Source: a virus (Duplodnaviria > Caudoviricetes). From it: DNA of 64,000 nt. The notes beneath the pieces are model-generated. The model searched no databases. It saw nothing but the letters and a program-made list of their open reading frames with translations, and was not told the origin of the DNA. Below, piece by piece: positions 9,952 to 42,079 of this stretch. The DNA is taken from positions 1 to 64,000 of IMG/VR virus record IMGVR_UViG_3300029288_004944, one strand, 5' to 3'. Made by a program: the position numbers and the translations under genes. Every line of letters begins with the position of its first letter. The first letter of the stretch is position 1.

Positions 9952-12819
9952 TTAAGATTCAAGAGCCATCAGTTGCTGTGTAAGATCAGAGATCTCATCA
10001 GCCTTTGCCTGTGCTCCGCTTATCCAACCCCATATCTTTGAAAAAGCACTCTTTATCCAATCAAATATACCTGCATTTTTTAGATAACTATTAACTCTTG
10101 GATATTGAACAATATCTTCTTTTGGTCCGGCTTTTTCAATTTTTGCCATTTCTAATTTTGTCTGCACACCCTTTAACGCACTAATAGTTCTACCCAAAAT
10201 AACAATAGCCTCATCACATTTTCCCTTAAGAGCATCCTCTATTTGCTTCATATCCAATGTTATCTCCGGCTGTTTGCCCAACTCAGGTACATACTTACGA
10301 TATGCAATATTGTTCAGGTCATTAGTAATTTTTACCACAATAGTGCCCGTATCAGAAACCTGACTTCTAAAAGTTTCTGTTATTTCATCTGTGATTTGCT
10401 GTTTTTTCATTACAATATCACTATATCCTTTTGATTTTTTCATTTCTTGAACTTGTTTTTCAGCATCTTCCTTCAATTTATTACCAGCTAAATCCAAAGA
10501 CTTTATTTGACTATCATATTCTGCCAATATTTCTATCCTTTTTGAAATTTCAGGATCAACAGGAGCCTCAACGGATTTTGTTTCTTCTACCCATTCAGGC
10601 CTTTTCTTTAAATCCCTAACACCTACGCTCTGTTTTAATATCGCATCTATCTCATTTGGAGTTAAAGATTTAAGCCATTTATAGAATACACCACCACGAA
10701 TCTCAGACAAACTTACCTTAGCATCTCTATTAATTTCAGAATTTTCAGTACTACCATGCTCTGCAATACCCACAACATCACTAATCTCATTCAAATCATT
10801 CCATTCTTCATCTGTTACATTATTTACCAAAAAAACATTTACAATATTTTCTTCTTTAAAATAATCACCCTGTAAAATCCATTCTATTTTTTCCTTTAAT
10901 TCATCCCCATCAATATCAATCCATATACTATAAAAATTTGTTGGACCTGTAATTAAATCATAATCCCATTCATTTCCCCTCTCAAAACCTATCATATCAG
11001 CATTAGTGGGCTCCTTCTTAGTTTCTATATGTAAAGTATAAGTTGCTTCAGAATCTATATCTGCTATTTTATCAACACCCATTCCTATATGTTTTGCATT
11101 CAATTTAAAAGGTTTTAAGTGTTTTTCCACTATATCAATTGCTTTATCTAAAACTGCATTAAAAACTTTTTCATTTTCTTCAGTAAAATTCAAGTTATTT
11201 CCATTATTTTTTACATCAATATCAAATGTTTTATTATCTTCGTCAACATAAATTTTCAATATCAAACCATTACAATTTTTAGCCACATCTTCTATTGCCT
11301 CATCTATTTTTTTATTAAGAGAATTTATCTCATCCGATACTTTATTCACACTTGATTTCTTTTCAGGAACATCGTATCCCTTTTTTCTTGCCATACTATA
11401 TGCCTGTGCTATTGCCTGATCTTGGGATTTACCTTCTTCTACCAATAATTTAATTTTATTGCTTATCCACGATTGGGCATCATCGCTCATTTTATTTGAT
11501 ACTTTATTCTGTCCTTTTTGACTTTCCTCAAATTTTTCAAGTTCCTTCATGGTATCTCTTATACCTTCCTCTACTTCTTCGATTGTAGCATTATTCTCAG
11601 CAAAAGAACCTACATTAAATACATCCACTTCTCTACCATCTTGAGAATAAACATGAATCATGTGTCCACCAAACCAAGCATACGTCAAATCAGTTTCAGG
11701 ATCATGCTTTACATATTTAGCTCCATCAAGCCATGCTGTAGATTTTTTATTTATCTTTGCCTTAACCCATTCCTTATCCGGCTGATAATAACGCATCATA
11801 TGATCTTCTGTGCACAAAAATCTTCCAAACCTTTCTTCTTGTGCTTCAATAATATATCCTGCTGTTGGATCAAATGTTGCTACTTTGCCAACAGTACCTG
11901 CGGGAATGATCAACCCCGTTGCTGTATCAACTAATTTTGATGTAATTATAATATCCTCTTTATCTTTATATTTTGCTTGTACCTTGGTAGCATTAATTAA
12001 ATCTACCATCCATTGACCTTGTGGTATCTCAGAAAAAGCAACTTTATTTAAAGATGCTTTCTTTTCTACTTCAACATCTTCATTAATTATCTCAACTTTA
12101 TCGGAAAACATTGCATCTGATATGACCTTTTCAGCATTTTCACCATTCGGAGAAAGAATATCAACAACAGAAACTAATTTATCTTGTGAAAATTCATCAA
12201 AAGCAACAACCTTATTCCCGTTGAAAGACACAACAATCCTTCCAACTTCAGGATTATTCTGATTTGCATAAAAATCCACATCATAATCCCTAAAACCCAT
12301 ATGGCCTTCAGCACATTTATGCCAAGTAGATCCATCGGGAATCTCCTGAATTTCAGCCGTAATATCTCTTAATCCCGGCACAATCTCGGAAATTTTTGAC
12401 TTAACATACTCATCGCTAAACAAAATCCCAATTCTTTCTTTATTTTTCACTACTTTATAACTCATCTTTGTTGCCTCCTTAACAGGAAATAAATTAAATA
12501 ATTCATCGGCCTCTTTTGCAGCCTCATCCTTAGTATCATCATCTACCTGCTTATCTATAATACCGGTAATCATTTTCTTTATACTTAAAAACTTATCAAC
12601 CATTGTATTTTTATCATTAAACCCAACACTTGAAAGCCACATAGTGCTACTTTTCCACTTTATTTTAATCTCATAAGGATATTCTCTTTCTGCATTAAAA
12701 GAAGGAGATGATATATTATCAAATGTCGCTATCTCAACTATATCCAATCTATAATCAGGGGATTTAGGATTAATAATCGTAAACTCATTTCTACTTAAAA
12801 TATTATCTTGTGGATTCAT
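9952..12819 (-). CDS. Large modular acidic protein (putative polyprotein/virion protein)
   Basis: Start MNPQD after AGGAG; modules separated by KKASLNKVA, KINKKS, NKVS, KKSSVNKVS, DKIA, LKNA. Confidence 0.8.
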   Translation of the reverse strand: MNPQDNILSRNEFTIINPKSPDYRLDIVEIATFDNISSPSFNAEREYPYEIKIKWKSSTMWLSSVGFNDKNTMVDKFLSIKKMITGIIDKQVDDDTKDEAAKEADELFNLFPVKEATKMSYKVVKNKERIGILFSDEYVKSKISEIVPGLRDITAEIQEIPDGSTWHKCAEGHMGFRDYDVDFYANQNNPEVGRIVVSFNGNKVVAFDEFSQDKLVSVVDILSPNGENAEKVISDAMFSDKVEIINEDVEVEKKASLNKVAFSEIPQGQWMVDLINATKVQAKYKDKEDIIITSKLVDTATGLIIPAGTVGKVATFDPTAGYIIEAQEERFGRFLCTEDHMMRYYQPDKEWVKAKINKKSTAWLDGAKYVKHDPETDLTYAWFGGHMIHVYSQDGREVDVFNVGSFAENNATIEEVEEGIRDTMKELEKFEESQKGQNKVSNKMSDDAQSWISNKIKLLVEEGKSQDQAIAQAYSMARKKGYDVPEKKSSVNKVSDEINSLNKKIDEAIEDVAKNCNGLILKIYVDEDNKTFDIDVKNNGNNLNFTEENEKVFNAVLDKAIDIVEKHLKPFKLNAKHIGMGVDKIADIDSEATYTLHIETKKEPTNADMIGFERGNEWDYDLITGPTNFYSIWIDIDGDELKEKIEWILQGDYFKEENIVNVFLVNNVTDEEWNDLNEISDVVGIAEHGSTENSEINRDAKVSLSEIRGGVFYKWLKSLTPNEIDAILKQSVGVRDLKKRPEWVEETKSVEAPVDPEISKRIEILAEYDSQIKSLDLAGNKLKEDAEKQVQEMKKSKGYSDIVMKKQQITDEITETFRSQVSDTGTIVVKITNDLNNIAYRKYVPELGKQPEITLDMKQIEDALKGKCDEAIVILGRTISALKGVQTKLEMAKIEKAGPKEDIVQYPRVNSYLKNAGIFDWIKSAFSKIWGWISGAQAKADEISDLTQQLMALES

Positions 12820-12829
12820 TTTACTCCTT

Positions 12830-13729
12830 TTATTTGGTATTTTGCTTACCATTTTCCTGTTTATCAATTGTTGTCTGATATGATTTTATTTCACGCCTAA
12901 TTGCGGCAGATAAAGGATTAATAAATTGAGGACACACACTCAATATGGCCTTATATATCGCTCTATATATCCCATCAAGATACCCGTGCACAATATTCAC
13001 AACAACAGTCTGTTCTGTTCCCTTCAACTCTCCTGACAATTTTGATGTTAATTCAACCATTTGCCTTAATTCGCCAATATAACTGGGTAATATTTTTTGT
13101 AAATCTTTATCATTACTGTCTTCGGCCAACACCTTGATCTTGTATGCCAATAAAAGAATTACAGACTTTAGAAGTTGATACTTGTCAATATCTCCTCTTT
13201 CAGACATTTCATCAATAGCATTCATCAGATCTTTTGTCCGAATAATGCCACCTTGATCTATAACCTTCAAAACTTTCTTTTTGCTTTCATACCAATTTCT
13301 ATATTTATCCAACGATGGCTGAGATACGCCATCCAAAGATTTCCATATCTTTGGATAAGATTTTTCCAATACCTTCATAATATTTTTTGAACCAAGACCA
13401 TTATCAATTAGATTATTAACAATATCAAGATCTTCTTGTGGTAAAAGCCTTAATTTACCCATATAAGAATTAATACTATCATCTTTTTCTAATAACTTTT
13501 CAGTATCCTCAACAATATTATCAATGGAATCATTAGTAGACTTGGGACAGACTTGGGACAGATTTAAGACAGAAGTATCCTTAACATCTTTTGATGTGCT
13601 CTCTACAATTTGAGCATCAGTATATTCTTCTTTTTTCTCTGGCTCAGGATCAGACTTAAGTCCATTCTCCAATTCAGACATTGTAAAATAGGTTTTTTCA
13701 CTTTGTTTTTTATCATCCATTATTTCCAC
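12830..13729 (-). CDS. Possible terminase small subunit (DUF3486/Mu gp27-like HTH + coiled coil)
   Basis: LIDNGLGSKNIMKVLE...VSQPSLDKYR HTH-like segment followed by helices; lies in the packaging region. Confidence 0.4.
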   Translation of the reverse strand: MEIMDDKKQSEKTYFTMSELENGLKSDPEPEKKEEYTDAQIVESTSKDVKDTSVLNLSQVCPKSTNDSIDNIVEDTEKLLEKDDSINSYMGKLRLLPQEDLDIVNNLIDNGLGSKNIMKVLEKSYPKIWKSLDGVSQPSLDKYRNWYESKKKVLKVIDQGGIIRTKDLMNAIDEMSERGDIDKYQLLKSVILLLAYKIKVLAEDSNDKDLQKILPSYIGELRQMVELTSKLSGELKGTEQTVVVNIVHGYLDGIYRAIYKAILSVCPQFINPLSAAIRREIKSYQTTIDKQENGKQNTK

Positions 13730-13753
13730 CTTAACATTTTTCTTTCAACACTA

Positions 13754-14446: not shown

Positions 14447-14502
14447 TTTTGACCTCCATTTTATATTTTAAATATTATTACAAATTTCATATTAAATCCT
14501 TT

Positions 14503-15627
14503 TTAGTCATACGCATTTTCACCCAAAACAAACATTTTTCTTTTATTGTCTATGGTATACTTAACCATATCATCGCCCTCAAGAAACTCTAAACACTCTC
14601 CATATGTTCCTTCAAATAAATCTTTATCAAGATTTTCATCATAAACTTTCCATTCATCGGAAGATTCAATATCACTAAAACTTATACTTGCTATATAATA
14701 CTTATCTCCCTCTTTCCACACAACTTCATCTCCTTGAGGATGACCAATTTGTCTAACAATAAGTCTTTCTTTTTTACTTGTTGGCAATTCACCACCACAA
14801 AGTTCATAAGCCTCTTCTCTTCCAATTTCTACAGCATCACCCCTTACCTGTCTTATTATTGCCTTCTTATCCACAAAAGATTTTAATTTTGTAGATAATG
14901 CAAATGTACCATCATCCTGCTCTTTATATTTCGGATTTGCTTGTTGATATTTTTTAACCAACCTATTAAACTCACTATCAGCATCTATCCATGGACCACC
15001 TTCATCAAAATCACGTGCTATTATATTTGCTTCTTTTTCCATTTCAGTATACACACCAAGATGACCACCCAAAATAAAATTTATAAAATCTTCAGGAGAA
15101 AATTCTTGCATTTTTGTATAAGTATATCTTACAAGATTTTGTGCATCATTATAAAAATCTGAAGGAGAATCAGATTTCTTGTTCAAAGATGCTTTTGGAT
15201 TTGCTTTTTCGAATTCCTCACGTTCTTTTCTCGTGTGTCCCCCACAAACTTTATTTGGATCTCCACCAACAGGGCACTCTTTTATTGGTTTTCCACAATA
15301 TGGACATTTTGTTGCCCTATCCGCTTTTTTACCTATAGTTGCTTCTTTCATTATTGCTTTCACTTTCTCAAAATTCACTTTTGGCAATTTAATTTTATCT
15401 GCCCACGTCTCAAATGTCAAATCAGGGCTTGCAACTTTTTCTTTATTGTACATTTCCAATATCTGTTCGGCCTGAAGTTCGGCAACCCTAACCAACACAT
15501 CTTTGCCATTTTTCTTTTTTAAGTCCCAAAAATCCTGATCAGCAGATTTATCGGCATCTTTCTTTTTCTTGGACGATTCGGGATTCAGTCCGCAAAATTC
15601 TTTTATCTCACCTAAAAAATCTTCCAT
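14503..15627 (-). CDS. Modular acidic protein
   Basis: 374 aa; linkers EKVAS, IGKKA, KASLNKKS, VDKKA; one CPYC zinc module. Confidence 0.8.
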   Translation of the reverse strand: MEDFLGEIKEFCGLNPESSKKKKDADKSADQDFWDLKKKNGKDVLVRVAELQAEQILEMYNKEKVASPDLTFETWADKIKLPKVNFEKVKAIMKEATIGKKADRATKCPYCGKPIKECPVGGDPNKVCGGHTRKEREEFEKANPKASLNKKSDSPSDFYNDAQNLVRYTYTKMQEFSPEDFINFILGGHLGVYTEMEKEANIIARDFDEGGPWIDADSEFNRLVKKYQQANPKYKEQDDGTFALSTKLKSFVDKKAIIRQVRGDAVEIGREEAYELCGGELPTSKKERLIVRQIGHPQGDEVVWKEGDKYYIASISFSDIESSDEWKVYDENLDKDLFEGTYGECLEFLEGDDMVKYTIDNKRKMFVLGENAYD

Positions 15628-16386: not shown

Positions 16387-19300
16387 TTAATTTATTCTCC
16401 AATACACAAATCCATTTACAGTCTCACTTGATTCTTCATCATAACTTGAAATAAAATGTTGCCAACCATCTTGACTAATAGCATCATCTGCTGCCCTATT
16501 TACATCAATTAAATTATTTTCTTTTACTATTCTTGCTGCTTCCTCTTCTCCAAAATTAAATCTATAATGTTCCAAACCTCCATCTCCTTCATTTATTTGA
16601 TCAGTAGTCATTTGTTCTACAAACTCATCTTTTTTGCTTTCAAAATCAAAATTCTTATCTTTTCCTTCTTCTTCAGATATAATCCCTCTTTCAACCATTT
16701 CTGCCGCCAATCTATTAACATATTCATCGGATGTTTCTAATTCAATATCATCAACATATCCTTGATTAAATTCATTATACATTTCTATAAAAATATTTTG
16801 GGCGGACTGTTCACTGATACACCCCATCAACCAATCGTTATCAAATAACTCAAATGGTTCATCTTCTAAATCATCTATCACCCTTTCTCTCGCATAGCCT
16901 TCGGCAGACTCTTCATTTTCTGCCACCTAATATTCTCTATCTCCCACATTAATAGTTGCTATATTATCATTAATTGAAATCTCAATTTTATTAGGTTTGA
17001 CTTTTAACTCCTTAGACATTTCCGAAATTATATTTTCTTCTGTAAATTCCAATTCTGATTTCTTATTCAACGAAGAAGAAATCGTCTCAACAGCCTCTGT
17101 GCTTGTGGTTGTTGCGATCGGAACTTGTACCCACATACTTGTGCCATCTACGTTCTTCTTGACAACCCATTTATATCCGGGGGTTGGGGGAGCCGTTGGC
17201 TTCGCATCTGCCTTTTTCCATATTATATTTTCATAGATCTCTCCTACCTCATCTTTGCTAAATTTAGCTGTCCACACTTTATCAACCTTATCAATCAATT
17301 CAATCAATTCAACCTCTTCATTTTCTTCTCCCGGCAAAGATTGTAAAATAACCTTATCTCCTGACTTATATGCCTTTTTCTCTACACCATCATCTTCTCC
17401 ATTTTCAATCTCACTATTTTCATCATCATTATCTATTTCAATATTTTTTTTTGACTTATCCTTTTTTCTTTTCTCCGTTTTTTCCTTATGATCTTCAAGC
17501 ATATTCAAAGCCTGAACGAATTTTATAATATCATCAGGCTTTGTCGCTTCATCTAATTGCTTCTTTACCTCACGAATTTTGGATGTAAGAGAAGCAGATT
17601 TTAAATTAGCAATACTTATTTTTTTCTTTTCTGCAATCATTTTAGCATAATACTCAACCAACTCCTTTGACATCGCATATCCTTCATCTGTCGTAGGATG
17701 TTTATCCGCGTGCATTATAGTACCAACAATAGCATCATCGACTGCCTGTTTTTCAGATTTTGTTGGCAAATAAATAGATAACAATTCTTCAAAATACTTT
17801 TTATCAGCATCAGACAACTCTGCCTTAATGTTTAATTTTTCTTCTTTCTTTTGTTCTTTCAAAACTTGTTCCGGTGTCTTATCCATTTCTTTCTGATAAT
17901 CTTTCAATAACATATCATACTTAATCGGACTTTTTACTCTTGGCTTTTCTTTCTCAGATTTTTTTAAATTCAAATTTGCCCTATTATCAAGCAATGCTTC
18001 ATCCCCTTCTTTCCAATCTCCTCCTGTACTATTCCATATCCTACCATTATAACTTATTCTTGCCACAGGTTGGTTTGTTGCTGTATCATATATTTTACAA
18101 TAAGGCACATTTCCACTACCTAAATTATTGTCATCTCTAAACTTCTCAAAAATACTACGAACTTCCTCAAGAGAATCTGCATAATGAGTTTCTTTTGGAA
18201 TTTTTACTGTTCCCTCGTGGCTATCTTTATCAAAATCAGGATTAGGCACTGCCGATAGATCAAATTTATATTTACCTTTAGATTTTTTATCAACAACATC
18301 TGCCTTACGAATAATTACCTTTTTATTAAAAGAAGATTCAATGTGTTGTCCAACATTTTGTTCCCAATATTTATCAAAATCCTTTATATATGTGTTAATC
18401 ACATACTCCATACTTTCAGATTCGAGTATATCTTCTTTTCTTATATCGAAATATTCTCCACTATCTTTTTGGAATACAAGAAATTCATCTCCATCATCAT
18501 CTACTACCACGCTTACTTTTATACCAAGTTCATCACCTTTTTCCTGTATTTTGTCTATATCAATAACTTCATCGATTTCGTCTGCTTTTATCTTTATTGA
18601 AGATTCTACAGCATTAACTTCTTCCTTTACTTCTTCAATAGAATTATCTTTATCTTCTACCTTACCCTCATCACTTACTGATTCCACACAGATAGGAGTA
18701 ATTGCTACCCCAGAATCTAATACAAAAATATTATGAATCCCATTTTTATATTTGCCACGAATTCCATAAAAACCATAAGGAGCCAAATCATTAGATATGG
18801 CATAATGTGTAGCCGGAATTTTGAATTCTTTTATAGTTGACTTTATACCTTCGCCTGGTCCCATAGGCACAGTTTCACCTTTTTTAATTTCTCTCCATTC
18901 CATATTACGAATTGCCGATTCGACATCTTCTTTGTTAATTCCTGGTTCGTTAAATCTATCAACCCTTTCGGCATTTTCCAATTCCCTTAATCCTACTTCT
19001 GTCCAATGTAATCCACCATCTTCTGCCTTTCTTTTCATTGAAGATTCAATCTCTTGTCCTGGATATAAAATTTCCCATATCTCTGCTCGTTCCTCACTAT
19101 TCAAATAGTGATCTCTTGCTTCTTCTATTGCATCACACACATCATTAACAATCTCAGAGGGAGTAGGAACAATATTCATAGATTGAAAATACTTTTCAGA
19201 CTCTAATGCTTCATCTTTAACTTGCTTTTCATCAAACTCTGCTTTCTTTTCAATTATATCAACTCCATTACCCTTCAACTGACTAACAACTTCCTCAAAT

Positions 19301-19557
19301 ACATATTCCTCAACTTCTTTTCTCAGTTCAGAATCTTCTATTTGCCATTGATCTTCTTTACCATTAGAAGTTTGTGTTTTTTTCACATCCCTTAAAATAT
19401 CCGAAATACCCGGATGATCAGCCACAATCCTTCTAACTTCACTACTCTCTATTACATCAGCCAAATCATTATTTATATAATCAGCAATTCTACTAACAAC
19501 AGATACAACATTAATCTTGGCATTTCGCTCTAATTTCTTTATATCTATCTTTGACAT
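16387..19557 (-). CDS. Large modular acidic protein interrupted by an in-frame TAG at 16927-16929 (or two abutting genes)
   Basis: 876-aa ORF ends GDREY-TAG and the same frame continues VAENEESAEGYARE for 179 aa; linkers IESSMKRKA, VESSIKIKA, IESSFNKKVIIRKA, LNIKA, VEKKA, SSSLNKKS. Confidence 0.75.
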
Positions 19558-23627: not shown

Positions 23628-24584
23628 TTATTTCAATATAAAATCATTTATCAACTGTTTGTAGTTGTCATTCTTTACGTCATGTTCCCATATGACAAGA
23701 CAATCCCATCCGAGATCTCTATACTTAGAGATCCGTTCTTCGGCTGTGTATTGTTTGTGCATACCTTTATTGTTTGGATAACAAATTGGACAATCGTGCC
23801 AATAATCTCCAAAATGTTCAATACACTTCTTTTGGCCATTGATATTTATGAAGTCGGGATTAAGATCTTCAATCCAAAACGATCCGTCACCCGTGTATTT
23901 GTATTCTTTTGGTTTGACTTCTTGCAAATGACTATATATACCCATTTCAGGTTTATTGGGTAATATACTATATTTTCCATCTTTTCGTGCTTGAATTGTT
24001 CCTTGACGAGTTTTTTCAATAGATTCGGGTGTACGATGCTTACCCATCTTATCATGTCCATTTATATACTTACATTCATGTCCCCTTTTACCATATTTAG
24101 AACGTAAGTAACCACAGCCACAGATACAGGGGATTTGAATAGAAAGACATTCATCACAAATAAATTTTTTACCATAAACCAAGGTTCCATCATTGGGTTT
24201 ATGACACGATCTACAGCAAAGACCTATTTTATCATGTCCTTTTATATATTTACGTTCTCTACCTTTTTTATCATATTTAAAGTGTAATTGACCACAGCCA
24301 CATTGACATAAGATTTTAATGGATAAACAAACTGAACAAACTCTATTACTATTGTTTAAGCTATCATAATTACCTTCTCCACAAATAACACAATGCATAC
24401 CACGTTTATCATGATTCATTATATATTTATACTCAGTGCCTTGTTTATCATATTTGAAACGATAATTATCACAACCACAACCACATGGAATTTGAATGGA
24501 TAAACACTCTACACAAACACGATTGGCATCATTTAATGTACCATCATTGGGTTTACCACAAGACTTAACTGCACAATGCCTCAT
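23628..24584 (-). CDS. Homing endonuclease (3 Cys-rich repeats + Vsr/PD-(D/E)xK-type nuclease)
   Basis: NDGTL...CLSIQIPCxCGC repeats; NPDF...EHFGDYWH...LVIWEHD. Confidence 0.8.
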   Translation of the reverse strand: MRHCAVKSCGKPNDGTLNDANRVCVECLSIQIPCGCGCDNYRFKYDKQGTEYKYIMNHDKRGMHCVICGEGNYDSLNNSNRVCSVCLSIKILCQCGCGQLHFKYDKKGRERKYIKGHDKIGLCCRSCHKPNDGTLVYGKKFICDECLSIQIPCICGCGYLRSKYGKRGHECKYINGHDKMGKHRTPESIEKTRQGTIQARKDGKYSILPNKPEMGIYSHLQEVKPKEYKYTGDGSFWIEDLNPDFININGQKKCIEHFGDYWHDCPICYPNNKGMHKQYTAEERISKYRDLGWDCLVIWEHDVKNDNYKQLINDFILK

Positions 24585-27329: not shown

Positions 27330-30300
27330 TTATTTTCTCTTGTTTGCTTCCATAATCATTATTTCATGAATCTGAGGCATTATCGGTTCAATCCATTCTT
27401 TCTTTTCTTCTTCCGTTAATTCCTCTAAACTCTTATTCGGCATCTTTAAATAAATATTACCCTCATTAATGTCTACATCTTCGCCTTTTTCCTCTTTATA
27501 AAATGTCACTCTCCAATCCTCAAAAACAAAAGTTTTCCAACCATCCTTAGTTTCAAACTCTTTTATAATCTCAGGCAATGGAACTGTTACTTCATTTTTA
27601 TATGCTCTCTTTTCCATAAATTCTTTTAAATCAGAATCCCTATAATATCCTTCCTCCTGTATTCTTGTACGACTCAAACCTTTAGATGTGGGCGATGTCC
27701 TACTAAGCAATAATTCGTGATCCAATGCTTCGACATTTTGTTCTGCCTGCCACTCTTTAATAATTTTATTTGCTTCATTTTCACTAACATTAAATTTTGA
27801 CACAAGAGCAGAAACAACAGTATCAATAGACTGCCCATCCTGTGAATCTATAAAATCAAACATTACTTTATCTTTTTTTATAACATCAATATGTAATTCA
27901 AGTCCTTTTATTGCATTCTTTAATACCTTAATTTCTTTGTCCTTTTCAAAATCAGAATATCTTTTATCTTTACCTAACTCTATTTTTTTTAATTTTTGTT
28001 TAAGTCTATCCAATTCTCTATCACTTTCTATAAGTTCATCCTCTTTACTATATTCATTGGATTTCTTTTTTAAATTACTTTCAATATTATCTTCCACACG
28101 TACTATATCTTTTGGCACATCATACCCTTTTCTTTCTAAGTCTTTTTTCATCAGATCATATGCCCAAGCCTCTACACCATGCTCACTTTCCTGCCATTCT
28201 CTCATTTTTGCAATTAGTCCTTCCGGCGTTAAGAAATAATTCTCTACGGACACTAATCCTTCTGATACATTATCAGAATTGGCAAACCCAACATCTTCAA
28301 AATAAGTATCGGGATATTCTTGATCTGCCTTATGTTTTATTTTTTTTAAATTAGACTCTCGTGTATAATATTTCTTTACAGCAGGAATTTCATTTACTGC
28401 TATAAGCCACTCGTTATCTTCCTCAAACGAATACCATCCTTCCTCTCCATATTTCCACTCTTTCTTTGTTTCTTCCGTCAATAACTTATCTCCAATTTCT
28501 TTTTTAACCATGATCCCACCATGACTTGCTGTAAACACTTTATAAATACCATCATCAATTTTTATACATTGTTGAACTTTACCCCACATAGAATCAGTCG
28601 GCTCTCCTGAAATATCCACATCATAATTAGCAGTTTTTTCTCCATTGCCTTTGTAGTATTTCTTAACTGTTTCCGGCTTCCATATCAATGTTTCTGAATT
28701 TGAATCATATATGGAAAATCCGTTATCTACCAATTTCTTTAAATTTTCCTCTAAATTCTTTCCCATCACAACACCTGTATCAAATGTAATTTTATCCATT
28801 ATATCTTTATACCACTTATTTTTTAGATCTTCGGGATCCATCCCCTTTTCCTCAGGATCATCAATCATACCAGGATCATATGCATTTTCCCACCATATAG
28901 CATAATCAACATTCTCAAGCATATTATCATTAGGTTCTTCGTCAAATTCATGACCTACTGCCTTTATTTTCAATGATGCTTTTTTATCTGAATACTCATA
29001 TTCCTTAAAATGTCTTAAATCTTTTTCATCAATAAGAAATCTATGTTTATCAGATGGCTGAAATTCAACGGGTTTAGATCCTTTTTCAATACCAACACTT
29101 AAATTTTCAGCAATTAAAATTTCATTTTCTTTTTGCCCATCAACTCTATCATAGTCTATTACATCATAATAACCACCCTCTAATTCAATCCCATCCTCAG
29201 ACTCAATATGATTCCATCTTATAGGAATAGCCACAACGGTAGCATAAGGCGATAAATAAATTGTTTCTCCCTCATCAGAAGCATTAACTTTTAATGATGC
29301 CTCACTTCTTTTTCCCTCAACGTAATACATTATATCATCCTGTATTATTTTACTTGATTTGCCCCTTGGCTTTAAATTATGCACATCTTCCATAACTTCC
29401 TCAATGGTTCCTTGAAAACCTTTATCAGATTCCATTTCTGATTGGCCTACATCCACTACAATTTGGTCTTTATACGCTTCACTTGTATACCATGGAATTG
29501 CCTTATCCAATTCAACATATCCTATTGGATATTCGCCGTATTTTTCTTTATATTCTTTATAGAACGCAAGACTAAATTTCCAAGCCAAAGATTTTATTCC
29601 GTTCCTAAATTCTCTTTCATTTTTAGCAAGATCTCTTATTTGTGCAATAGCCTCTTGCACAGTTCCAATATCTCCTCTTCCAAAACCTTCTGCATTGACT
29701 TTTAATTTTGAATTTAAATTTAGATCATCAGCAATATCTTTCCACTTTATTTTACCATCCTCTATATCGCCAATCCTCTTTACTATACCCCATTCATTAC
29801 CCATCCACTTTGATGACCACACTTGCTGTCTCATATCTGTAAAAATTAAATATGTATTACCTACTATCTCTTTTATAGTATAATCTCTAATATCATATTT
29901 CTCTTTCATTTTAACAACAGCATCTTCTTGTTCTTGTGTTAAAGATGCTTTTTTATTTAAAGGTTTAATATATCCAATTTCCATTCCATGTGAAAACCAC
30001 ACTTCTTTTCCACCCGAAAACTCTACCTTAAAAGAATTGCCATCAATCTCCCCTACCACGCCCTCTGCTCCTTTGGGAATGTCAACCTCTTTACCTCTAT
30101 CATCTGCTTCCTCGATATGTTTAATAGATATTACTTTATCGCCCACCTTGTATGTATAATAGGCCTTTTTATAATGTTTACCATACCATTCAGACAAATC
30201 ACACATTCCTTGCCCACTAATCACTCTCATTTGTTTTTCTCCTGGATCCCTAATAAAATCTATATCACATTTAGGGCAATTCCATGCATACAATTCATCT

Positions 30301-33300
30301 TCGGGATAAAACACAGGTTCTGCTTTTGCTCCACAATCACATTTAACTTTTTGTGTTCTTGAAATTTCTTGCAATTTTTCTTCTATTTGTTGTGGTGTCA
30401 TTTTAGATCTTGCTTCTTTTAATATAGGTCTTTCAAATTCTATGACATCAGGACTATGAGAAACTATTCTCCAACCATCTGCTTTAAGTTTTTCCGCTTC
30501 TTTTATTCCTCTCTCTGTTCTTAAGTCTACCCTTTTATATTCATATTTCGATGCCACTTTATGGGATACAACTTTTTCAATATCCCCTTCCCCCAAATCA
30601 AATGTCATATCATCAGGCTCTATCTGTACCACATAAATCTTTTCTCCCATTAAACCATACGCCCCGACCAATGTAACAACATCCCCTTTATGTAAACCCG
30701 AACTTGCAAATTCATCTGTCAATACCCTTACAGAATCACCCTCTTTATATTCATCCTGATCTGCTGTTTTTAAATTACGACTACTGCCGGCATTTTTAAT
30801 GCTACCCTCTGTCTCAAAATCAAAGGTATCCATATATCCTGAATCCACTGCCCATACACGAAGTTCATCACTCATTTGAGATGAATCTCCATCCACATTG
30901 TTTACAAGGAATTTAAGAGCATCTTCCTGTGTGGCTCCTTCGTTCTCCATATATTTATCATACCACATTTTTTCCATATGATCCAATTGATTTATATCTA
31001 TGTTTACTTTTTTCAATGCTGTCTTTAATGATCCCTCTATTCTACTATATGATGGGCTTAAAACACTGTACCCCATATCACTTGCTAAACCTAAAAATTT
31101 ATCATACTCATTTTCAGGAAATGAAAAATGTGTAGCCAATTCAGTTGTCAAACCCATTTGCTGTCTAAGTTTAATTATATCTGTTTCATTAGGATAACTG
31201 ATTATTGTATACAAACCATCTTTCAGGTCTATTTCTATATCACCTTTAGGCGACATAAAATCCTTTATTTGACATATATCTTCTTGAGGGGAAATTTCCT
31301 TGTCTGCCATCTTTAATGAAGCATTTTTTATTTTCATTTTTTCTTTCTTATATGCTTCAGATTCTCCATACTCAGGATTGTCTATATCTACGGGACCACT
31401 AATATATACGGGTTTGCCCATAAAAGATTGTTCTTCAAAATACTTTACTGCATCTTCGTATTTATCGGTATCAAATCTTTTAGCATTCTGATACTTAATA
31501 GCATCTTGTTCTTCATCGTATACACCTTCTTCAACTACCCAATACATATTATTTTTCCCAAGATCTTTTTTATCCACATCAAATTTTTCTCCGCATTTCG
31601 TGCAGATCTTTTTATCATAAACAGTGGATGTTTCATTTTCAGTACCGCATTTTGGACACGCGACTTTTATTTTTTTTGCTGACACTTTCTTATATACCTT
31701 AAGTTTTTTTATCATAAGAACTGCTTTAACCCTTTCAATATCCAAATCTTTACCCTTATAACTATCCATGGCATTCAACTCCGCTAATTCCGCTTCCAAT
31801 TCATCAATAGATAATTTCTCTATATCTTCAAATCTCAGTGATGCTTCTTTAAAATCTCTACGTTCTTTGTATTTTTCATATCTTTCTTTTGGCGATAAAG
31901 AATCATCTTCTTGACATCTTTTACATTTATCATCAAAATGTTCACCATCTTCTTTGGTAAATTTTTTTCCGCATATAATACAATTTTGTTTAGATACTAT
32001 ATTCAAAGATGCTTCAATATCTTCAGGAGATTCTTTAGGCGTCTTATCTCCGGCTACGCTTCTGTATTTCTCGTTAAACCTATATTTGACAAATGCATTA
32101 TAAACATCTTTCAGACTTCCGACTTCCAATCTATCTCCACCGGCCCACAATTCTTGTTGACCGTAGGCTCCGCCCAACTCAAAATTCGTCCCATACTCTT
32201 TATTATTTTGTTCAATCAATTCTCTTAATTCAGAAATAGATATTTGCTTTGATACTCTTTCAAAACTCGGCGAAAAACTAACGGCGACAGCCTGCCTTGC
32301 AGGGAGATCAGGATTCAACCGTGTGGGAAGAGGGGGGGAGGGGGGGGAGAAAATTACTTTCTTTCCCACCACTACAACCGATATCTTCTTTAATTCTGAT
32401 ATAGGAGCAATATCAACCTCATATAATGAATGTTCATCTCCATCGTAATTATCATATATATAATTAATAGTTGCTCTTTCTGTTTCACTATTTATAAATT
32501 CAACCTTACCAGCTCTACCATTATACTCTACCTTATCGCCGGGCCCAATATCATAAGCCTGCTTCTTTACCCCTACTTTCCCACTATTTACTCCCACAGC
32601 CACCTGCCTCTGCCTTGGAGACCTTTCTACCCTTTGTCTCATAGGCTCTGTTCTCCCACGCCCAAACTCTGTTCTTTTAGCCACCTCTATCATTCTACCA
32701 ATGTCTTCTACTGACATTGAAGGAAACTTAAATCCTATTGTACTCTCAATTTCAGATTTGTCCATACCATCTTTGATATATTGTATAATCTCTCTAATAA
32801 CAGGTATCTCGGCTTTTCTCTTTAATCTCGCCATAGCAGGAACAAGTCTACGATCATTATCCAAATTCATTATTCTATTCCTTTCAGCCATCTCATTTAT
32901 CATAACCATTTGTTCTTCGGCTGTTGATAGACACTTCATACATTTCCCATTCATATCATGAATAGTATCCCTATCACAATTAGGACAATACTCAATATCA
33001 AGATCTTCCATAGATTCAAACTTTTCAACACCCACAGTTTTTTTCATATTAAATTTAAAATTCTCTTCTATTTCTAAAAATTCTCCATCCTCTCCCTTGT
33101 TGTAGATATCCGATAATTCAGATATTCCATACATATCTTTCTGAGAATCTTTTTTTTCTAACCATATGGTTCCTGGAGCAAATCCTTCTGTCTCTCCATA
33201 TTCTTTACCCCATGGCTCCATAAAATAATCACCATAACTCATTCTATTCACAGAATATTTTTTTCCATCCATTTCTAATGGATTCCCATTACCCCATAAT

Positions 33301-34070
33301 TTACGTAATTCAGATCCACTTATTAAAAATTCTTTCATTGCAATCTTTTCTTTTTTTTCTATTGTTTTTCTAACGCCATTCACTTCATACCATTCTATGT
33401 CATTAAACCTATCTAAGTCTTTCTCTTGATTAAAAAATTCTTGTTCATCGGCAAAATGACTTGTCAGTGTACCAGGACGATTATTATATTTTACTCTTAT
33501 AACAACCCTATCTCCTGCTTGCCCTTTCATAACATCATAAGCATTACCATCTGCCCTTTTCCCAATTGTTCCACGTGGAACAATCCTTTTCTTATTTTTA
33601 TGTTTCTTAACTACTTCAATTTCTTCAATATATTGATTACACTTATTTATAACTTCTCCATACCATCCTGTCTTTTCAGATTGATATAGGCTTTGCTCTA
33701 ATTCATCTATCATTCCATCTGGTATATTATTTTCAGATACAAATCGTGCAACCTGAGAGATTATTTCGCTTCCTACTCTCTGCTTAAACTCATCTGATTC
33801 AGTAAAAAGATTATAAGCATCCTCAACAATATCAGCATCTGTTCTTTCTTGGGATTGTAAATCTTTTTTATCTTGATCGCTCAATTCAAACCATTCGCCT
33901 CTTGCTCTCCCATCCCTTTCCCACTCCTCCTGCATTTCCCTAAATTCTTGCTTCGAACCATAATTGTCTTCACTATTACCATCGTTCCCCCAACCTCCAT
34001 CTCCGGCTATAACTTTCTTCTTGCTATTTTTATCTATCGCTACAAACTTTTTCTTGATAAAATCTACCAT
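27330..34070 (-). CDS. Giant modular (polyvalent-type) protein, 2246 aa
   Basis: More than 20 short modules (SH3-like, zinc ribbons, helical, a DUF7007-like WG...TASHGG...EED.EW module) separated by basic K-x-A linkers. Confidence 0.85.
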   Translation of the reverse strand: MVDFIKKKFVAIDKNSKKKVIAGDGGWGNDGNSEDNYGSKQEFREMQEEWERDGRARGEWFELSDQDKKDLQSQERTDADIVEDAYNLFTESDEFKQRVGSEIISQVARFVSENNIPDGMIDELEQSLYQSEKTGWYGEVINKCNQYIEEIEVVKKHKNKKRIVPRGTIGKRADGNAYDVMKGQAGDRVVIRVKYNNRPGTLTSHFADEQEFFNQEKDLDRFNDIEWYEVNGVRKTIEKKEKIAMKEFLISGSELRKLWGNGNPLEMDGKKYSVNRMSYGDYFMEPWGKEYGETEGFAPGTIWLEKKDSQKDMYGISELSDIYNKGEDGEFLEIEENFKFNMKKTVGVEKFESMEDLDIEYCPNCDRDTIHDMNGKCMKCLSTAEEQMVMINEMAERNRIMNLDNDRRLVPAMARLKRKAEIPVIREIIQYIKDGMDKSEIESTIGFKFPSMSVEDIGRMIEVAKRTEFGRGRTEPMRQRVERSPRQRQVAVGVNSGKVGVKKQAYDIGPGDKVEYNGRAGKVEFINSETERATINYIYDNYDGDEHSLYEVDIAPISELKKISVVVVGKKVIFSPPSPPLPTRLNPDLPARQAVAVSFSPSFERVSKQISISELRELIEQNNKEYGTNFELGGAYGQQELWAGGDRLEVGSLKDVYNAFVKYRFNEKYRSVAGDKTPKESPEDIEASLNIVSKQNCIICGKKFTKEDGEHFDDKCKRCQEDDSLSPKERYEKYKERRDFKEASLRFEDIEKLSIDELEAELAELNAMDSYKGKDLDIERVKAVLMIKKLKVYKKVSAKKIKVACPKCGTENETSTVYDKKICTKCGEKFDVDKKDLGKNNMYWVVEEGVYDEEQDAIKYQNAKRFDTDKYEDAVKYFEEQSFMGKPVYISGPVDIDNPEYGESEAYKKEKMKIKNASLKMADKEISPQEDICQIKDFMSPKGDIEIDLKDGLYTIISYPNETDIIKLRQQMGLTTELATHFSFPENEYDKFLGLASDMGYSVLSPSYSRIEGSLKTALKKVNIDINQLDHMEKMWYDKYMENEGATQEDALKFLVNNVDGDSSQMSDELRVWAVDSGYMDTFDFETEGSIKNAGSSRNLKTADQDEYKEGDSVRVLTDEFASSGLHKGDVVTLVGAYGLMGEKIYVVQIEPDDMTFDLGEGDIEKVVSHKVASKYEYKRVDLRTERGIKEAEKLKADGWRIVSHSPDVIEFERPILKEARSKMTPQQIEEKLQEISRTQKVKCDCGAKAEPVFYPEDELYAWNCPKCDIDFIRDPGEKQMRVISGQGMCDLSEWYGKHYKKAYYTYKVGDKVISIKHIEEADDRGKEVDIPKGAEGVVGEIDGNSFKVEFSGGKEVWFSHGMEIGYIKPLNKKASLTQEQEDAVVKMKEKYDIRDYTIKEIVGNTYLIFTDMRQQVWSSKWMGNEWGIVKRIGDIEDGKIKWKDIADDLNLNSKLKVNAEGFGRGDIGTVQEAIAQIRDLAKNEREFRNGIKSLAWKFSLAFYKEYKEKYGEYPIGYVELDKAIPWYTSEAYKDQIVVDVGQSEMESDKGFQGTIEEVMEDVHNLKPRGKSSKIIQDDIMYYVEGKRSEASLKVNASDEGETIYLSPYATVVAIPIRWNHIESEDGIELEGGYYDVIDYDRVDGQKENEILIAENLSVGIEKGSKPVEFQPSDKHRFLIDEKDLRHFKEYEYSDKKASLKIKAVGHEFDEEPNDNMLENVDYAIWWENAYDPGMIDDPEEKGMDPEDLKNKWYKDIMDKITFDTGVVMGKNLEENLKKLVDNGFSIYDSNSETLIWKPETVKKYYKGNGEKTANYDVDISGEPTDSMWGKVQQCIKIDDGIYKVFTASHGGIMVKKEIGDKLLTEETKKEWKYGEEGWYSFEEDNEWLIAVNEIPAVKKYYTRESNLKKIKHKADQEYPDTYFEDVGFANSDNVSEGLVSVENYFLTPEGLIAKMREWQESEHGVEAWAYDLMKKDLERKGYDVPKDIVRVEDNIESNLKKKSNEYSKEDELIESDRELDRLKQKLKKIELGKDKRYSDFEKDKEIKVLKNAIKGLELHIDVIKKDKVMFDFIDSQDGQSIDTVVSALVSKFNVSENEANKIIKEWQAEQNVEALDHELLLSRTSPTSKGLSRTRIQEEGYYRDSDLKEFMEKRAYKNEVTVPLPEIIKEFETKDGWKTFVFEDWRVTFYKEEKGEDVDINEGNIYLKMPNKSLEELTEEEKKEWIEPIMPQIHEIMIMEANKRK

Positions 34071-37795: not shown

Positions 37796-37836
37796 TTAGA
37801 TCTCCCAAGTTCTTTCTCACTCTCTTTCTTATTGTC

Positions 37837-38082: not shown

Positions 38083-38168
38083 TCAACTCCTCCTTATCCC
38101 CACATTTTCTATATTGCTTACATTAACTATATCATTTAATTTATTTATTACTATTGTTACTATCAATT

Positions 38169-38435: not shown

Positions 38436-38472
38436 TCTCCTCTGTTAATCTTTTCAACACTTTCCCCTTTCT

Positions 38473-41400
38473 CTATTCCACCCTACCCGCCTCTACCACA
38501 ACTCCCCCATTCATGCTATAAACTTCACCTGTGTCCATATCTTTAATCTCATTTATCATTACCTTAGATCCTGGAATTAACTTTATCTCACTCTCAGGGT
38601 AAGGTATATCAGCATCCCCTGTATTCTTTTGTAATGTTTCTATCCAATCTACATTTTGTTTACTTACTTCACCTTTCACCACTACTTCCGGCCACCCCTC
38701 ATTTGATTCCCCTTTTGCATTCTCATAAACTGTGGCCTGTCCTAAATCCCATGTCCAATACACACCCATAGATGGCCAATCTTCTAATAGGAGTTCATCT
38801 TTAATACTCTTTACAAATTCTTGTACATCCTTTACTGCTAATGCTCTAAATACCGGAAAAGGATCTGTGAACCCTAAAAATCTCTTCTTAGATGCTTCAA
38901 ATGCTTCTATTGCTTCTTCGGGATAGTTCTGATAGAACTCATCCACTTCTCCACCCGGCTGATCATTGATCAGATCTTCTATTGTTATATTCTCCAAGGA
39001 TACAGATGCTTTTCTTTTCAATCCCCTATATTCGCCATACTTCTTTATAAATTCTTCTATACTATAAAACCCATCCTCACTTTGAGCAAAGGTCTCAACC
39101 AAAATCTTACGTGGTTTAAAGTTTATAATTATATCAAACCATTTCCTAAGAGTATCCACATTCTCTACCTCAACACCCATTAAATTATTCTGTTCCATTC
39201 TTACTCTTGTCCATCCTAACAATATTAATGCTTCTATCTTATTATTATACTCAGGTATTGTAATTCCATATTCTTCTTTTAACATCTCTATATTATTAAA
39301 TATCCATTCTTCGTGTTCTCCCGTAGATTCTTCTACTCCAACATTATATATCTTACCCACAGGATCAATCCAGTATGCACCCAAATTTCCTTTTGCTGCT
39401 TCTTTTAATCTCCCCTCTATCTCGAACTTCTCTATTGTCGTATCTTTCTTAGACAACTCTATCTCTTTTATCTGCCACTCTATTTCCGGTTCTTCATCCA
39501 CCAACTCCTCCGTCTCTCTTAGTTTCTTGCCTTTCTTTAAATAGGCTATCGTGATATGCGGAGTGTAATCAAAGTCATCCTTGACTTCAAACTCTTTGGC
39601 GAGATCGGAGTGAAGTTCTTTCAAATCTTGAGACTCTAATTTCAGCACAGCCACATCATATTCTTTACTGTGAGTGAAATAATCTATCTTGGCGATCTTG
39701 GCGATTAATTGGCGATTGGCCACAAGTGATTGAATATCAGATATAGAGGCAGAGTCAATACCATAGCAAAGGGTTGTGTGGGGGGATGGGGGAAATCCTC
39801 CATCCATCTCATTACTTTCTGCATCAGACAGATCTTCTTTTGGAATACTGTTTTGAACTTTCTTTATCCATTGTTTTAACTCTTTTGGTATGTCAGACGT
39901 TTGCACACTACCATGATCGTAATCTGCTCTTATTACTATCCCACCTCTTCTTATCAACACTCCCACTTTCTCGGATGTTAAATGTTCTTCATCTCCTACC
40001 GTTAATTCTAACTCTTCTTTGTTTACTATCCGATCTTTTGAAATTGAATTATCTATCACTATATCCCCACCTATTAAATCAGGGTGTGATTCTATATAAT
40101 GTTTGAATATTAGATCTGCTCTATCGTCTTCTGCCACACCCTCTTCCCCCTCACTACTTTCCCCATATGTTTCCTCTTCCGGATATAACTTATCATACTC
40201 TGCTACCGGCCACATTATCTCTATATCCACAGAATCAGGGCTATTTGAATTCATTGCCCTATATGATTTCTCACCCAACACTGTATAAACGATACCAAGG
40301 TCTGTATCCTCAGCCCTAAGCCCATTTTCCAATATACTCTTTACATTCTCTCTGCTTGTTTGGTGGTGCAGGTCCACACCATTGGGATACTTATTCTTTA
40401 ACATCTCTATGAACTGTCTTTGATACTTTCCCATATCAAGATCATATTTCTCCCCTTTAACCCTACCCCTCATACTCGCACTTATCTTACTCCCATCCTT
40501 ACCTTCTTCTTTTGTGTGATACTTCTGCACTGTGCTATATTGTTTATTCTTTAAATCCTCGGCAAGATCATATATATCACGTATAACATCATATATCTCT
40601 TCTGCTTCTTTATTTTCCTCTTCTCCTGCCTCATCATACGCCCACGATAATATCTGATCAGAACTATGCCATGTTGATATAAGTTCATCCATTGCTTGCA
40701 ATATAGCCATTGGATCAATTGCTGATTTCAATTTCTCTATTTTCTTATTTACTTTATCCCAAAACCTTCCATACTCTTTTTCTTCAAATCTTCTACTTCT
40801 TTCTAACTCTTCAGGCGATACTCCCACTCTCTCCATAAGCGATAATATAATCTCTTTTGACTTCTCTGCTACCTGTGGATCTATTTCTCCCACTATCCCC
40901 TGCCTATATAACTCTTTAATCGTTTCTATATCGGATAGAGATAGCGAAGACAATTTGTCTATTTCGCCTCTCTTATTAACCTTTAACTCTTTCCACTCCC
41001 CTACTTCCCATTGCCCCATCTCTTTCTCAGACTTTATACCCTTCCCCTTTCTTTCCCCACCACCGTTTGTTATCTCCACTCTTAATATACCGTTCTCTGC
41101 CCCGGTCCCCACCACATAATCTTCACTATCATTTAATGTTTCCCCCACTTCCTCCGATAAATAACCCTCATCATCATATTCTGTATATGTATATCCGATT
41201 ACACTCTCCCCCACAGAGGCGGCGATGGAAGGAAATCTATCTGCCATAAACTTATCTACGGCTTCATTGTGAGTAAGACCTTTATACTCCGGCTTTTGAT
41301 ATATTGCTACCCAACATGGTTCCCCCCAATACTCATAGTATATTATCTTATCGCCTGCATTGATTACAATTACCCAATCCTCTGATCGTACCAAATCCCA

Positions 41401-41799
41401 CTGCCCCACACTTACATCTTTCTCAGGGTATGCCTTTTTCTTTTTAGCCATCTCTATATAATTCTTTCTCATTGAATCAGATTCATATTGTTTACTTTCT
41501 TTCTTTATTCCTACACCTATCCCCCCACTATTACTTGCCTCTACCTTTAGCGTAGCAGGCAATAGCCTTACTCCCTTCATACCACCAAACTCTAATAGAT
41601 CGTTTGCAGTAGCCAAACTTATAGCCTTTAACCCAATAGCCATTGTATACTTATTCTCTGCTACCTTGCGAGCCCAAGACAATAGAGATATATTCTTAGT
41701 CCCCCCCAATGTTTTTATGGCCTCAGAAATTAGTTCATTGGTGTCTATATTTAAGTCAGATAAATTTATAACTAAAGTATATCCGGATTGTTTTTTCAT
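38473..41799 (-). CDS. Polyvalent protein with two ART-like domains and a 2H phosphoesterase
   Basis: LHHQTS...SILENGL (H-type ART-like); PHTTL and PHITI (2H); VFRAL...GVYWTW...VDW...ESEI (R-S-E-type ART-like); start probably MKKQS after GGAG, ORF open to 41880. Confidence 0.8.
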   Translation of the reverse strand: MKKQSGYTLVINLSDLNIDTNELISEAIKTLGGTKNISLLSWARKVAENKYTMAIGLKAISLATANDLLEFGGMKGVRLLPATLKVEASNSGGIGVGIKKESKQYESDSMRKNYIEMAKKKKAYPEKDVSVGQWDLVRSEDWVIVINAGDKIIYYEYWGEPCWVAIYQKPEYKGLTHNEAVDKFMADRFPSIAASVGESVIGYTYTEYDDEGYLSEEVGETLNDSEDYVVGTGAENGILRVEITNGGGERKGKGIKSEKEMGQWEVGEWKELKVNKRGEIDKLSSLSLSDIETIKELYRQGIVGEIDPQVAEKSKEIILSLMERVGVSPEELERSRRFEEKEYGRFWDKVNKKIEKLKSAIDPMAILQAMDELISTWHSSDQILSWAYDEAGEEENKEAEEIYDVIRDIYDLAEDLKNKQYSTVQKYHTKEEGKDGSKISASMRGRVKGEKYDLDMGKYQRQFIEMLKNKYPNGVDLHHQTSRENVKSILENGLRAEDTDLGIVYTVLGEKSYRAMNSNSPDSVDIEIMWPVAEYDKLYPEEETYGESSEGEEGVAEDDRADLIFKHYIESHPDLIGGDIVIDNSISKDRIVNKEELELTVGDEEHLTSEKVGVLIRRGGIVIRADYDHGSVQTSDIPKELKQWIKKVQNSIPKEDLSDAESNEMDGGFPPSPHTTLCYGIDSASISDIQSLVANRQLIAKIAKIDYFTHSKEYDVAVLKLESQDLKELHSDLAKEFEVKDDFDYTPHITIAYLKKGKKLRETEELVDEEPEIEWQIKEIELSKKDTTIEKFEIEGRLKEAAKGNLGAYWIDPVGKIYNVGVEESTGEHEEWIFNNIEMLKEEYGITIPEYNNKIEALILLGWTRVRMEQNNLMGVEVENVDTLRKWFDIIINFKPRKILVETFAQSEDGFYSIEEFIKKYGEYRGLKRKASVSLENITIEDLINDQPGGEVDEFYQNYPEEAIEAFEASKKRFLGFTDPFPVFRALAVKDVQEFVKSIKDELLLEDWPSMGVYWTWDLGQATVYENAKGESNEGWPEVVVKGEVSKQNVDWIETLQKNTGDADIPYPESEIKLIPGSKVMINEIKDMDTGEVYSMNGGVVVEAGRVE

Positions 41800-42079
41800 T
41801 AGTTTTTTTACTCCAAAAAATATTATATATTTATGATTTCTCTTGTTCTTTCTAAGGTCTGAACTAATTACTTTTTGCATTTCTTAAAGTTAAAGGTGTC
41901 TGCGAGATAGATTTTTTTCGCTTTTTTCCATACTTCTATATATAAACTCTCTCTTTCCTCCCATATTCCCCCACCTTGTCTCCCCTTTACTCCACCTTTA
42001 CTATTCTTTTCTCCTTCTTTTCTCTAATCTTTCCTACTTAATACCCCCGTCACTGCATCATTATGACACAAACCACTCT

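Follow-up and report, generated by a model that had tools for sequence, protein, structure and literature searches.

The window analysed here, i.e., the first 64 kb of a 139,457-bp viral contig (IMG/VR record IMGVR_UViG_3300029288_004944), encodes five large acidic proteins that carry a short Lys-rich peptide. This peptide is enriched above shuffled controls, is conserved at the peptide level and throughout a clade of phages, coincides with the borders of genes and of protein modules, and is present at the domain junction of a head maturation protease family. It is rather likely to be the cleavage site of an S78-like head protease, in polyproteins that would be loaded into the head, and the residue at its P1 position is probably Ala or Ser rather than Glu. 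In its full form the candidate site would read [AS]-S-L-[NK]-K-[KV]-[AS], and in its minimal form h-x-K-x-[AS] (h, hydrophobic), that is, a hydrophobic residue at P5, Asn, Lys or another polar residue at P4, Lys at P3 and/or P2, and Ala or Ser at P1.

Enrichment and conservation of the peptide

A strict pattern, [AS]S[LIMVF][NK].[KNV][AS], was scanned in the 187 minus-strand open reading frames (ORFs) of the contig and was found 10 times, against 0.30 +/- 0.53 occurrences expected (maximum 2) from 300 within-protein shuffles. All 10 sites are confined to the five motif ORFs listed in Table 1, and there are none in the 75 kb of the contig that hold replication, glycan and other genes; the 10-kb stretch beyond the capsid genes is free of sites as well, and both absences fit a head-specific role. 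Since the pattern was drawn up after the data had been seen, independent confirmation was sought. The shorter string KK[AS] occurs 20 times in the five proteins (7.3 expected, z 4.6), shows no excess over the remaining 36,499 residues of the proteome (35 versus 38), and is again frequent (21 versus 6.2) in the four large ORFs of a relative, L010, that took no part in the definition of the motif. Furthermore, a matrix trained solely on the ten window sites, with a score threshold of 12 or more, gave 19 matches in 13 distinct related metagenomic loci, where 0.79 were expected. ORFs of at least 600 amino acids (aa), which hold 31% of the residues, contain 17 of these 19 matches. Matrix matches with low scores include false positives such as ASTNKIS, within the AAA fold. 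The original prediction, made from the letters of the window and proposing that giant proteins are built from modules joined by a recurring K-x-A/S linker, is borne out in this respect by the shuffled controls, and every motif instance that it quoted is present in the gene to which it had been assigned.

The motif is kept in relatives whose proteins are just 35-60% identical and whose flanking sequences have diverged. Site codons vary among the copies (TCT/TCA/AGT, TTA/TTG, AAA/AAG, GCA/GCT/GCG) and, since they differ, selection and conservation act on the peptide and not on the DNA; a DNA-level repeat, be it a promoter, a terminator or a recombination site, is ruled out on the same ground. 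A composition artefact is ruled out by the shuffles and by the lack of enrichment in the remaining proteome. A duplicated-domain edge is ruled out too, given that the sequences flanking the strong sites show no paralogy and that, at E<1e-3, no repeated segment is common to the five proteins, apart from a small module, KGYDVP, that precedes the motif in two of them.

Module borders and the head protease junction

The AAA module of the 658-aa protein (ORF 24620-26596), used as a query, retrieved 16 metagenomic relatives with 49-60% identity. In five distinct relatives it is a stand-alone gene of about 405-430 aa, and in the loci L006, L019, L023, L027 and L031 it is fused within ORFs of 1221-2361 aa that carry the motif at its N-terminal edge (TSLNKKS in L006, SSLDKQLKKEA in L019, ASLERKA in L023, NSLDFQA in L027 and ASLNTKA in L031). 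In L023 and L019, the position right behind the terminal Ala lines up with the start Met of the stand-alone genes. Leaders of about 40-150 aa, present in four relatives, stop a few residues short of the module with the endings MKKIA-S, MKKTA-F, FSKTA-S or LIKTA-S; all four have the form h-x-K-x-A, and Ser follows in three. The other end of the module shows h-x-K-x-A in nearly all relatives (LKKKA in the window protein), and several stand-alone genes continue past it with a tail of about 20 residues. For the AAA module, stand-alone homologues of the kind that the original prediction had suggested searching for module by module are at hand. When the 2246-aa protein was searched by words for shorter stand-alone counterparts, there were no hits. 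As for the tails, several of the stand-alone genes of L020, L021, L022, L025, L029 and L030 end in an amphipathic-looking stretch of about 17-34 residues (e.g., SKIDSIVEKIWQNK and SNLSNAAKIANEILSVK), which could be a removable loading or docking peptide.

Other modules are delimited in a comparable manner. The module with the signature CNGLI[LV]KI is preceded by SSVNKVS in the 971-aa protein and by NASLDIQA in L006, and the sequences upstream are unrelated. The alignment of the C-terminal module of the 658-aa protein with L009:3-815 begins exactly at the motif in both (SSLNKKA and ASLDKKA, respectively). The module at residues 430-512 of the 876-aa protein (nucleotides, nt, 18022-18270) recurs in two polyvalent-like proteins, P0002 and P0003, which belong to other lineages; DUF2958 is present in one of the two. 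It is bracketed by SSFNKKV...DKKS and ANLNLKKS in the 876-aa protein, and by [YM]AKGG or KKGG in P0002 and P0003. There are at least seven copies of the latter linkers in P0003 and six in P0002, and they may be the linker code of another lineage; a literature search on the [YM]AKGG linker found nothing relevant. On the whole, the comparison supports that the motif marks module borders and that gene fusion and fission occur exactly there.

The prohead protease, whose location the original prediction had left to be found, is encoded outside the window, at L007:13653-16634, where the N-terminal domain of the product matches the head maturation protease family phrog_18299 (4e-20); the stretch L007:13653-14400 encodes this protease domain. 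The protein is homologous to gp19 of Bacillus phage G (30% identity), and residues His86 and Ser140 are invariant in 15 members of the family. The Pfam matches to S78 and S78_2, the prohead serine proteases of the HK97 gp4 and XkdF type, stay below threshold: the best is PF14550, with 16.7 bits against a cut-off of 24, and two of the 15 members match S78_2 and one matches S78. Sequence searches of PDB with the protease, singly and as a profile, gave nothing significant. A full HMMER search yielded 2,202 representative homologues at E<=0.001, many of which, with 800-2,462 aa, consist of the protease domain and a long variable C-terminal extension.

The junction between these two parts was studied in the 145 homologues in which the protease domain could be seen to end, at VPADxxA. 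A peptide of the form h-x-[KR]-x-[AS] lies 8-40 residues after VPADxxA in 95 of the 145 (66%), compared with 20% in control windows of the same proteins, and in 30 of those 95 it is directly followed by Ser (e.g., ISKKA-SLTKEE and LVKTA-SLNKEQ). One subfamily has the full seven-residue motif at the junction (EIYASLKRKA, EIYAALNKKA, EIYASLNRVA and EVLASLKVKA), and matches to the matrix occur at or beside it in eight homologues, where about 0.06 would be expected by chance. The protease of the phage itself has LIKMA at the junction, at residues 234-238, and ASVEKKA in its tail, at residues 793-799; where P0006, which is 48% identical to it, aligns with the junction, it reads LNKTA-S. The homologous protease-scaffold protein of L009 has small modules inserted between its protease domain and the C-terminal scaffold part, which is conserved, and three perfect sites (SSLNKKS, ASLNKKA and SSLNKKS) bracket these modules. 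Sites also occur within the protease-scaffold proteins of L015 and L016. The protease of phage SPN3US, gp245, is known to remove its own C-terminal propeptide at an A-x-E motif (PMC10052503). Known self-processing head proteases have just such a site where protease and scaffold meet, a pattern that supports the link of the peptide with the head protease.

Some further observations concern the head genes of this clade. Close to the C-terminal end of the 115-aa protein encoded just upstream of the protease (L007:13286-13633) stands RSNLNIVS-EWSDE, which matches well the site ASLNIVS in the 2246-aa protein. Large insertions interrupt three proteins in relatives, at L013:1544-5338, L013:6428-11029, L010:12156-15410 and L011:8681-12415; with them the portal measures 1264 and 1085 aa, the head protease 1533 aa and the large terminase 1245 aa. 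Precomputed intein/Hint Pfam matches are on record for the L013 portal and protease.

Genome setting and the five proteins

The window is AT-rich (32-36% guanine plus cytosine), with nearly all genes on the minus strand. A check for terminal overlap of the contig found none, and the sequence of the phage extends onto a 216.8-kb ENA contig that runs past the portal, so that the genome comprises at least ~284 kb, and the source, known from metagenomic contigs only, is therefore a jumbo phage that is uncultured and has Bacillus phage G as a relative. Transcription runs first through the five candidate polyprotein ORFs (374-2246 aa), situated 5-30 kb upstream of the large terminase (TerL) and portal genes, then through a set of small genes, the terminase and the portal. 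Beyond the window the order continues with a homing endonuclease, three small genes and the protease-scaffold protein of 993 aa, after which there are a decoration-like protein and the major capsid protein. The latter is small (307 aa), in the manner of gp27 of phage G, and, like its homologues, has no long N-terminal delta domain; the scaffold role is probably filled by the C-terminal 750 residues of the protease protein.

Table 1. Head genes, motif proteins and candidate sites (window coordinates, unless a locus name is given)
Feature	Position	Strand	Remarks
Portal protein	133..1791	-	closest deposited relative: gp14 of the 497-kb Bacillus phage G, 35% identity
Large terminase	2825..4483	-	downstream of the polyprotein block
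971-aa acidic multi-module protein	9952..12867	-	two strong sites
ASLNKVA, residues 271-277	12037..12057	-	971-aa protein; VEKKA before it
SSVNKVS, residues 505-511	11335..11355	-	971-aa protein; CNGLILKIY module follows at once
Module behind the second site	11098..11307	-	971-aa protein; homologous to a module of L006
374-aa protein	14503..15627	-	one strong site; simplest candidate substrate
ASLNKKS, residues 146-152	15172..15192	-	374-aa protein
876-aa acidic multi-module protein	16927..19557	-	three strong sites and weaker ones
SSMKRKA, residues 172-178	19024..19044	-	876-aa protein; in a long predicted coil
SSIKIKA, residues 319-325	18583..18603	-	876-aa protein; just ahead of confidently modelled domain 332-402
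SSFNKKV, residues 408-414	18316..18336	-	876-aa protein; weaker; just past domain 332-402
SSLNKKS, residues 828-834	17056..17076	-	876-aa protein
658-aa protein	24620..26596	-	AAA+ module, LKKKA, 100-aa acidic module, SSLNKKA, C-terminal module with zinc ribbon
Cdc48/VAT-type AAA+ module, residues 1-384	25445..26596	-	658-aa protein
LKKKA junction ending the AAA module	25430..25444	-	658-aa protein; relatives at this place: MKKA, ASKKA, MKKTA, LIKTA
SSLNKKA, residues 483-489	25130..25150	-	658-aa protein
2246-aa acidic multi-module protein	27330..34070	-	at least seven sites
ASLNIVS, residues 687-693	31992..32012	-	2246-aa protein
ASLKMA, residues 917-922	31305..31322	-	2246-aa protein; six-residue variant; cf. 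protease junction LIKMA
GSLKTA, residues 1013-1018	31017..31034	-	2246-aa protein; six-residue variant
SKLKVNA, residues 1454-1460	29691..29711	-	2246-aa protein
ASLKVNA, residues 1591-1597	29280..29300	-	2246-aa protein
ASLKIKA, residues 1698-1704	28959..28979	-	2246-aa protein
DUF7007, residues 1823-1923	28302..28604	-	2246-aa protein
SNLKKKS, residues 1998-2004	28059..28079	-	2246-aa protein
1135-aa protein	38473..41880	-	one weak instance, KRKASVS, at nt 38998-39018; membership unsupported
Head protease-scaffold gene	L007:13653-16634		four genes past the portal, outside the window
Major capsid gene	L007:17417-18340		outside the window, after the protease-scaffold gene

The segments between strong sites measure 42-450 aa and are mostly acidic (pI 4.1-5.8), which agrees with the acidity of the modules in the original prediction and widens the range of 50-110 aa that it gave as their length. 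Two gene starts also differ slightly from those it had used, owing to the choice of start codon. From the six proteins it had grouped together, five are supported; the sixth, of 1135 aa, has the single weak instance of Table 1 and no excess of KK[AS] (1 versus 1.2). This protein has a 2H/Acb1-like phosphoesterase domain (PF13563, 1.8e-12; PF23474, 7.5e-09) and looks like a classical polyvalent or Alt-like protein, yet one devoid of the linker motif.

Pfam recognised AAA and DUF7007 only over the five proteins, with no embedded peptidase among its matches. Two single-sequence AlphaFold models were poor (mean predicted local distance difference test, pLDDT, of 41.5 and 36.6), and sites lie on both sides of their sole confident domain (876-aa protein, residues 332-402), which is weakly consistent with the sites being placed at domain borders.

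Regarding the neighbouring genes, HNH homing-endonuclease-like paralogues are interspersed with the polyprotein genes (window positions 6782-7534, 23628-24584, 26586-27257 and 47656-48630) and have the N-terminal signature C-x-x-C...NDGTL...CLSI[QK]IPC. At positions 16926-16929, no spacer separates the stop codon of the 876-aa gene from the GTG with which the next ORF (16387-16926) starts; both products are acidic, and the two genes may be translationally coupled or may formerly have been one. Many small genes between 34376 and 46217 open with a common leader, M-x-[IV]-I-[DE]-x-h-I-x-R-W-G or MDIKQDIIKRLGPD, and inspection of the five large proteins for that leader gave no convincing match.

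Candidate mechanism, rival explanations and known systems

If the peptide is a cleavage site, the five large acidic proteins would be strings of unrelated modules linked by it, entering the prohead as single chains and being cut after the terminal Ala or Ser. The enzyme would be the S78/XkdF-like serine protease encoded just past the portal and fused to a scaffold-like tail, from which it would release itself at the same kind of site. The cut is placed after the terminal small residue because of the register with the stand-alone genes and the family-wide protease junction, an alternative scissile bond being one step earlier, between [AS] and Ser. This is where the cleavage after K-x-A/S with a P1 residue other than Glu, as originally predicted, finds its support, i.e., in comparison (conservation, fusion and fission at the motif, the protease junction and non-paralogous flanks). 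Cutting at the strong and medium sites would give about 21 fragments, and up to about 35 if the weaker h-x-KK[AS] sites were used, so the "dozens" of effectors that had been proposed would be reached only by counting weak sites. The freed modules would include a Cdc48-type AAA+ unfoldase, DUF7007, zinc ribbons and small beta-barrel domains, and they might either be retained and ejected with the DNA or be expelled like scaffold fragments. As cutting would make fused and separate genes equivalent, modules could be fused, split and shuffled exactly at the site.

Several observations weigh against this interpretation. The capsid protein has no clear site: at its residues 25-30, three clade members have GL[EQ]K[IV]A (GLEKIA in this phage), which lies within a conserved structural stretch. 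The portal has no strong site, and the protease-scaffold proteins of this phage and of L010 show weak or near matches only. The head region of phage G (first 45 kb) has a homologous terminase, portal, protease and capsid, yet no motif, and the motif therefore belongs to a narrower clade. Both structure models are too poor to show the sites as exposed linkers and, to our knowledge, there is no precedent for a packaged AAA+ unfoldase. Finally, the element at the junction could be kept for the structure of the protease and never be cut.

Are there other explanations for such a peptide? The one that keeps the best chance, although it is unlikely, accepts the cut by the head protease but regards the proteins as an expendable core or scaffold of a very large capsid, whose fragments exit before DNA packaging without any delivery. 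The presence of the same sites within the protease-scaffold protein itself and the acidity of the five proteins, shared with many scaffold and core proteins, would suit it, and propeptide fragments normally leave heads (PMC10052503); nonetheless, enzymes and conflict-type domains, such as an AAA+ unfoldase and DUF7007, and a module common to polyvalent-like proteins exceed what a scaffold would need. It is rather improbable that the peptide remains uncut, as a docking or linker element that strings the acidic modules as beads and whose binding partner would be, for example, the scaffold, the inside of the capsid or DNA. A docking element would not be expected at every module border, in coincidence with the gene starts and stops of relatives, nor at the end of short N-terminal leaders and ahead of the short C-terminal tails of stand-alone genes, and a last residue that is invariably small, in many cases with Ser after it, is what protease sites typically show. 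What speaks for docking is that the motif is Lys-rich and placed between acidic modules, and that the element at the protease junction could be a structural part of the family.

The chance is slimmer that the sites are cut by some protease foreign to the capsid, such as a host or phage peptidase, in cytoplasmic polyproteins that are no head cargo. A candidate exists in a 155-aa PF18894 metallopeptidase-like gene of the early region (L004:11743-12210), an AAA+ unfoldase is atypical for a virion protein, and the want of a clear site in the capsid protein would be accounted for; however, the occurrence of the motif at the domain junction of the head protease, family-wide, and inside the protease-scaffold proteins of relatives is a pattern of self-processing, and the genes lie in the late block beside the terminase and the portal. 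Lastly, a functionless by-product of Lys-rich composition, of a DNA repeat or of a duplicated-domain edge might be thought of in an AT-rich and Lys-rich proteome with KGYDVP before two of the motifs, but it is effectively refuted by the shuffles and the unenriched remaining proteome, the varying codons, the lack of paralogous segments and the persistence of the motif between diverged flanks.

The cleavage-site interpretation can be extended to a broader scenario, which is tentative. According to it, a clade of phage-G-like jumbo phages would load polyproteins, a Cdc48-type unfoldase included, and an S78-like protease of undescribed specificity would cut them into 20-35 proteins to be ejected with the DNA; the linker would act as a universal adaptor, any gene being addable by fusion, and other lineages would use a code of their own, e.g., [YM]AKGG. 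If the cleavage-site interpretation holds, a cleavage specificity would be predicted for a large uncharacterised family of head proteases, many of whose members are fused to 500-2,000 residues of unknown sequence. The giant, fast-evolving and unannotatable late genes of jumbo phages would be explained as processed strings of small proteins, and a simple rule would be available by which annotation and structure prediction could divide these ORFs into their functional units. Furthermore, the computational idea of polyvalent proteins would be tied to the experimentally known head-protease pathway, the delivery of an AAA+ unfoldase into the host would become a possibility, and the portable logic of cut site and capsid loading could be useful for putting proteins into the phage capsids of laboratory strains.

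Among the systems already known, gp21 of T4 cuts after L/I-x-E, and gp175 of phiKZ and gp245 of SPN3US after A-x-E (PMC10052503, PMC5694885). As in these phages, a head maturation protease is encoded here in the head module, and one short motif is common to several proteins and to the C-terminal self-processing site of the protease, which in this phage is a putative one. Many of the substrates in T4, phiKZ and SPN3US are non-shell proteins thought to travel with the DNA. Unlike in T4 and phiKZ, the predicted P1 residue is Ala or Ser preceded by Lys, Val or Asn, and the candidate sites separate the many unrelated modules of giant ORFs, whereas processing in the known cases is mostly the removal of a single propeptide from the N-terminus. 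The protease, in turn, differs from T4 gp21 in being S78/XkdF-like and fused to a scaffold tail. Because the terminal residue is Ala or Ser and not Glu, the system is best filed as a variant, and not as a member, of the T4/phiKZ specificity class.

The second term of comparison is the polyvalent proteins of phages and conjugative elements (Iyer, Burroughs, Anand, de Souza and Aravind 2017, PMC5512222), for which packaging into the capsid and processing by embedded zincin-like or other peptidase domains have been proposed (PMC5512222). The five proteins resemble them in being giant, multi-domain and encoded near the portal and terminase genes, in their mosaic of shuffled modules, and in the one module that they have in common with a DUF2958-bearing polyvalent-like protein. 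The recurrent linker peptide and the link with the prohead protease set them apart from that account, in the text of which the word "linker" occurs 0 times. They also differ in that no embedded peptidase was found in them and that few of their modules match known conflict domains.

The release and maturation sites of herpesvirus assemblin consist of (V/L/I)-x-A followed by Ser. The candidate sites are similar in their small P1 residue, in the frequent Ser at P1' and in their position at the junction between protease and scaffold in one polypeptide. The conserved Lys at P3/P2 and hydrophobic residue at P5 are differences from assemblin, and the likeness is one of site sequence and position. Phage prohead proteases have been described as homologous to the herpesvirus protease (Cheng et al. 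2004, as cited in PMC10052503). Head-protease processing and polyvalent proteins are thus already known as concepts, and what would be new with respect to them is a specificity other than Glu, a different type of protease and the placement of the sites between the many modules of giant ORFs.

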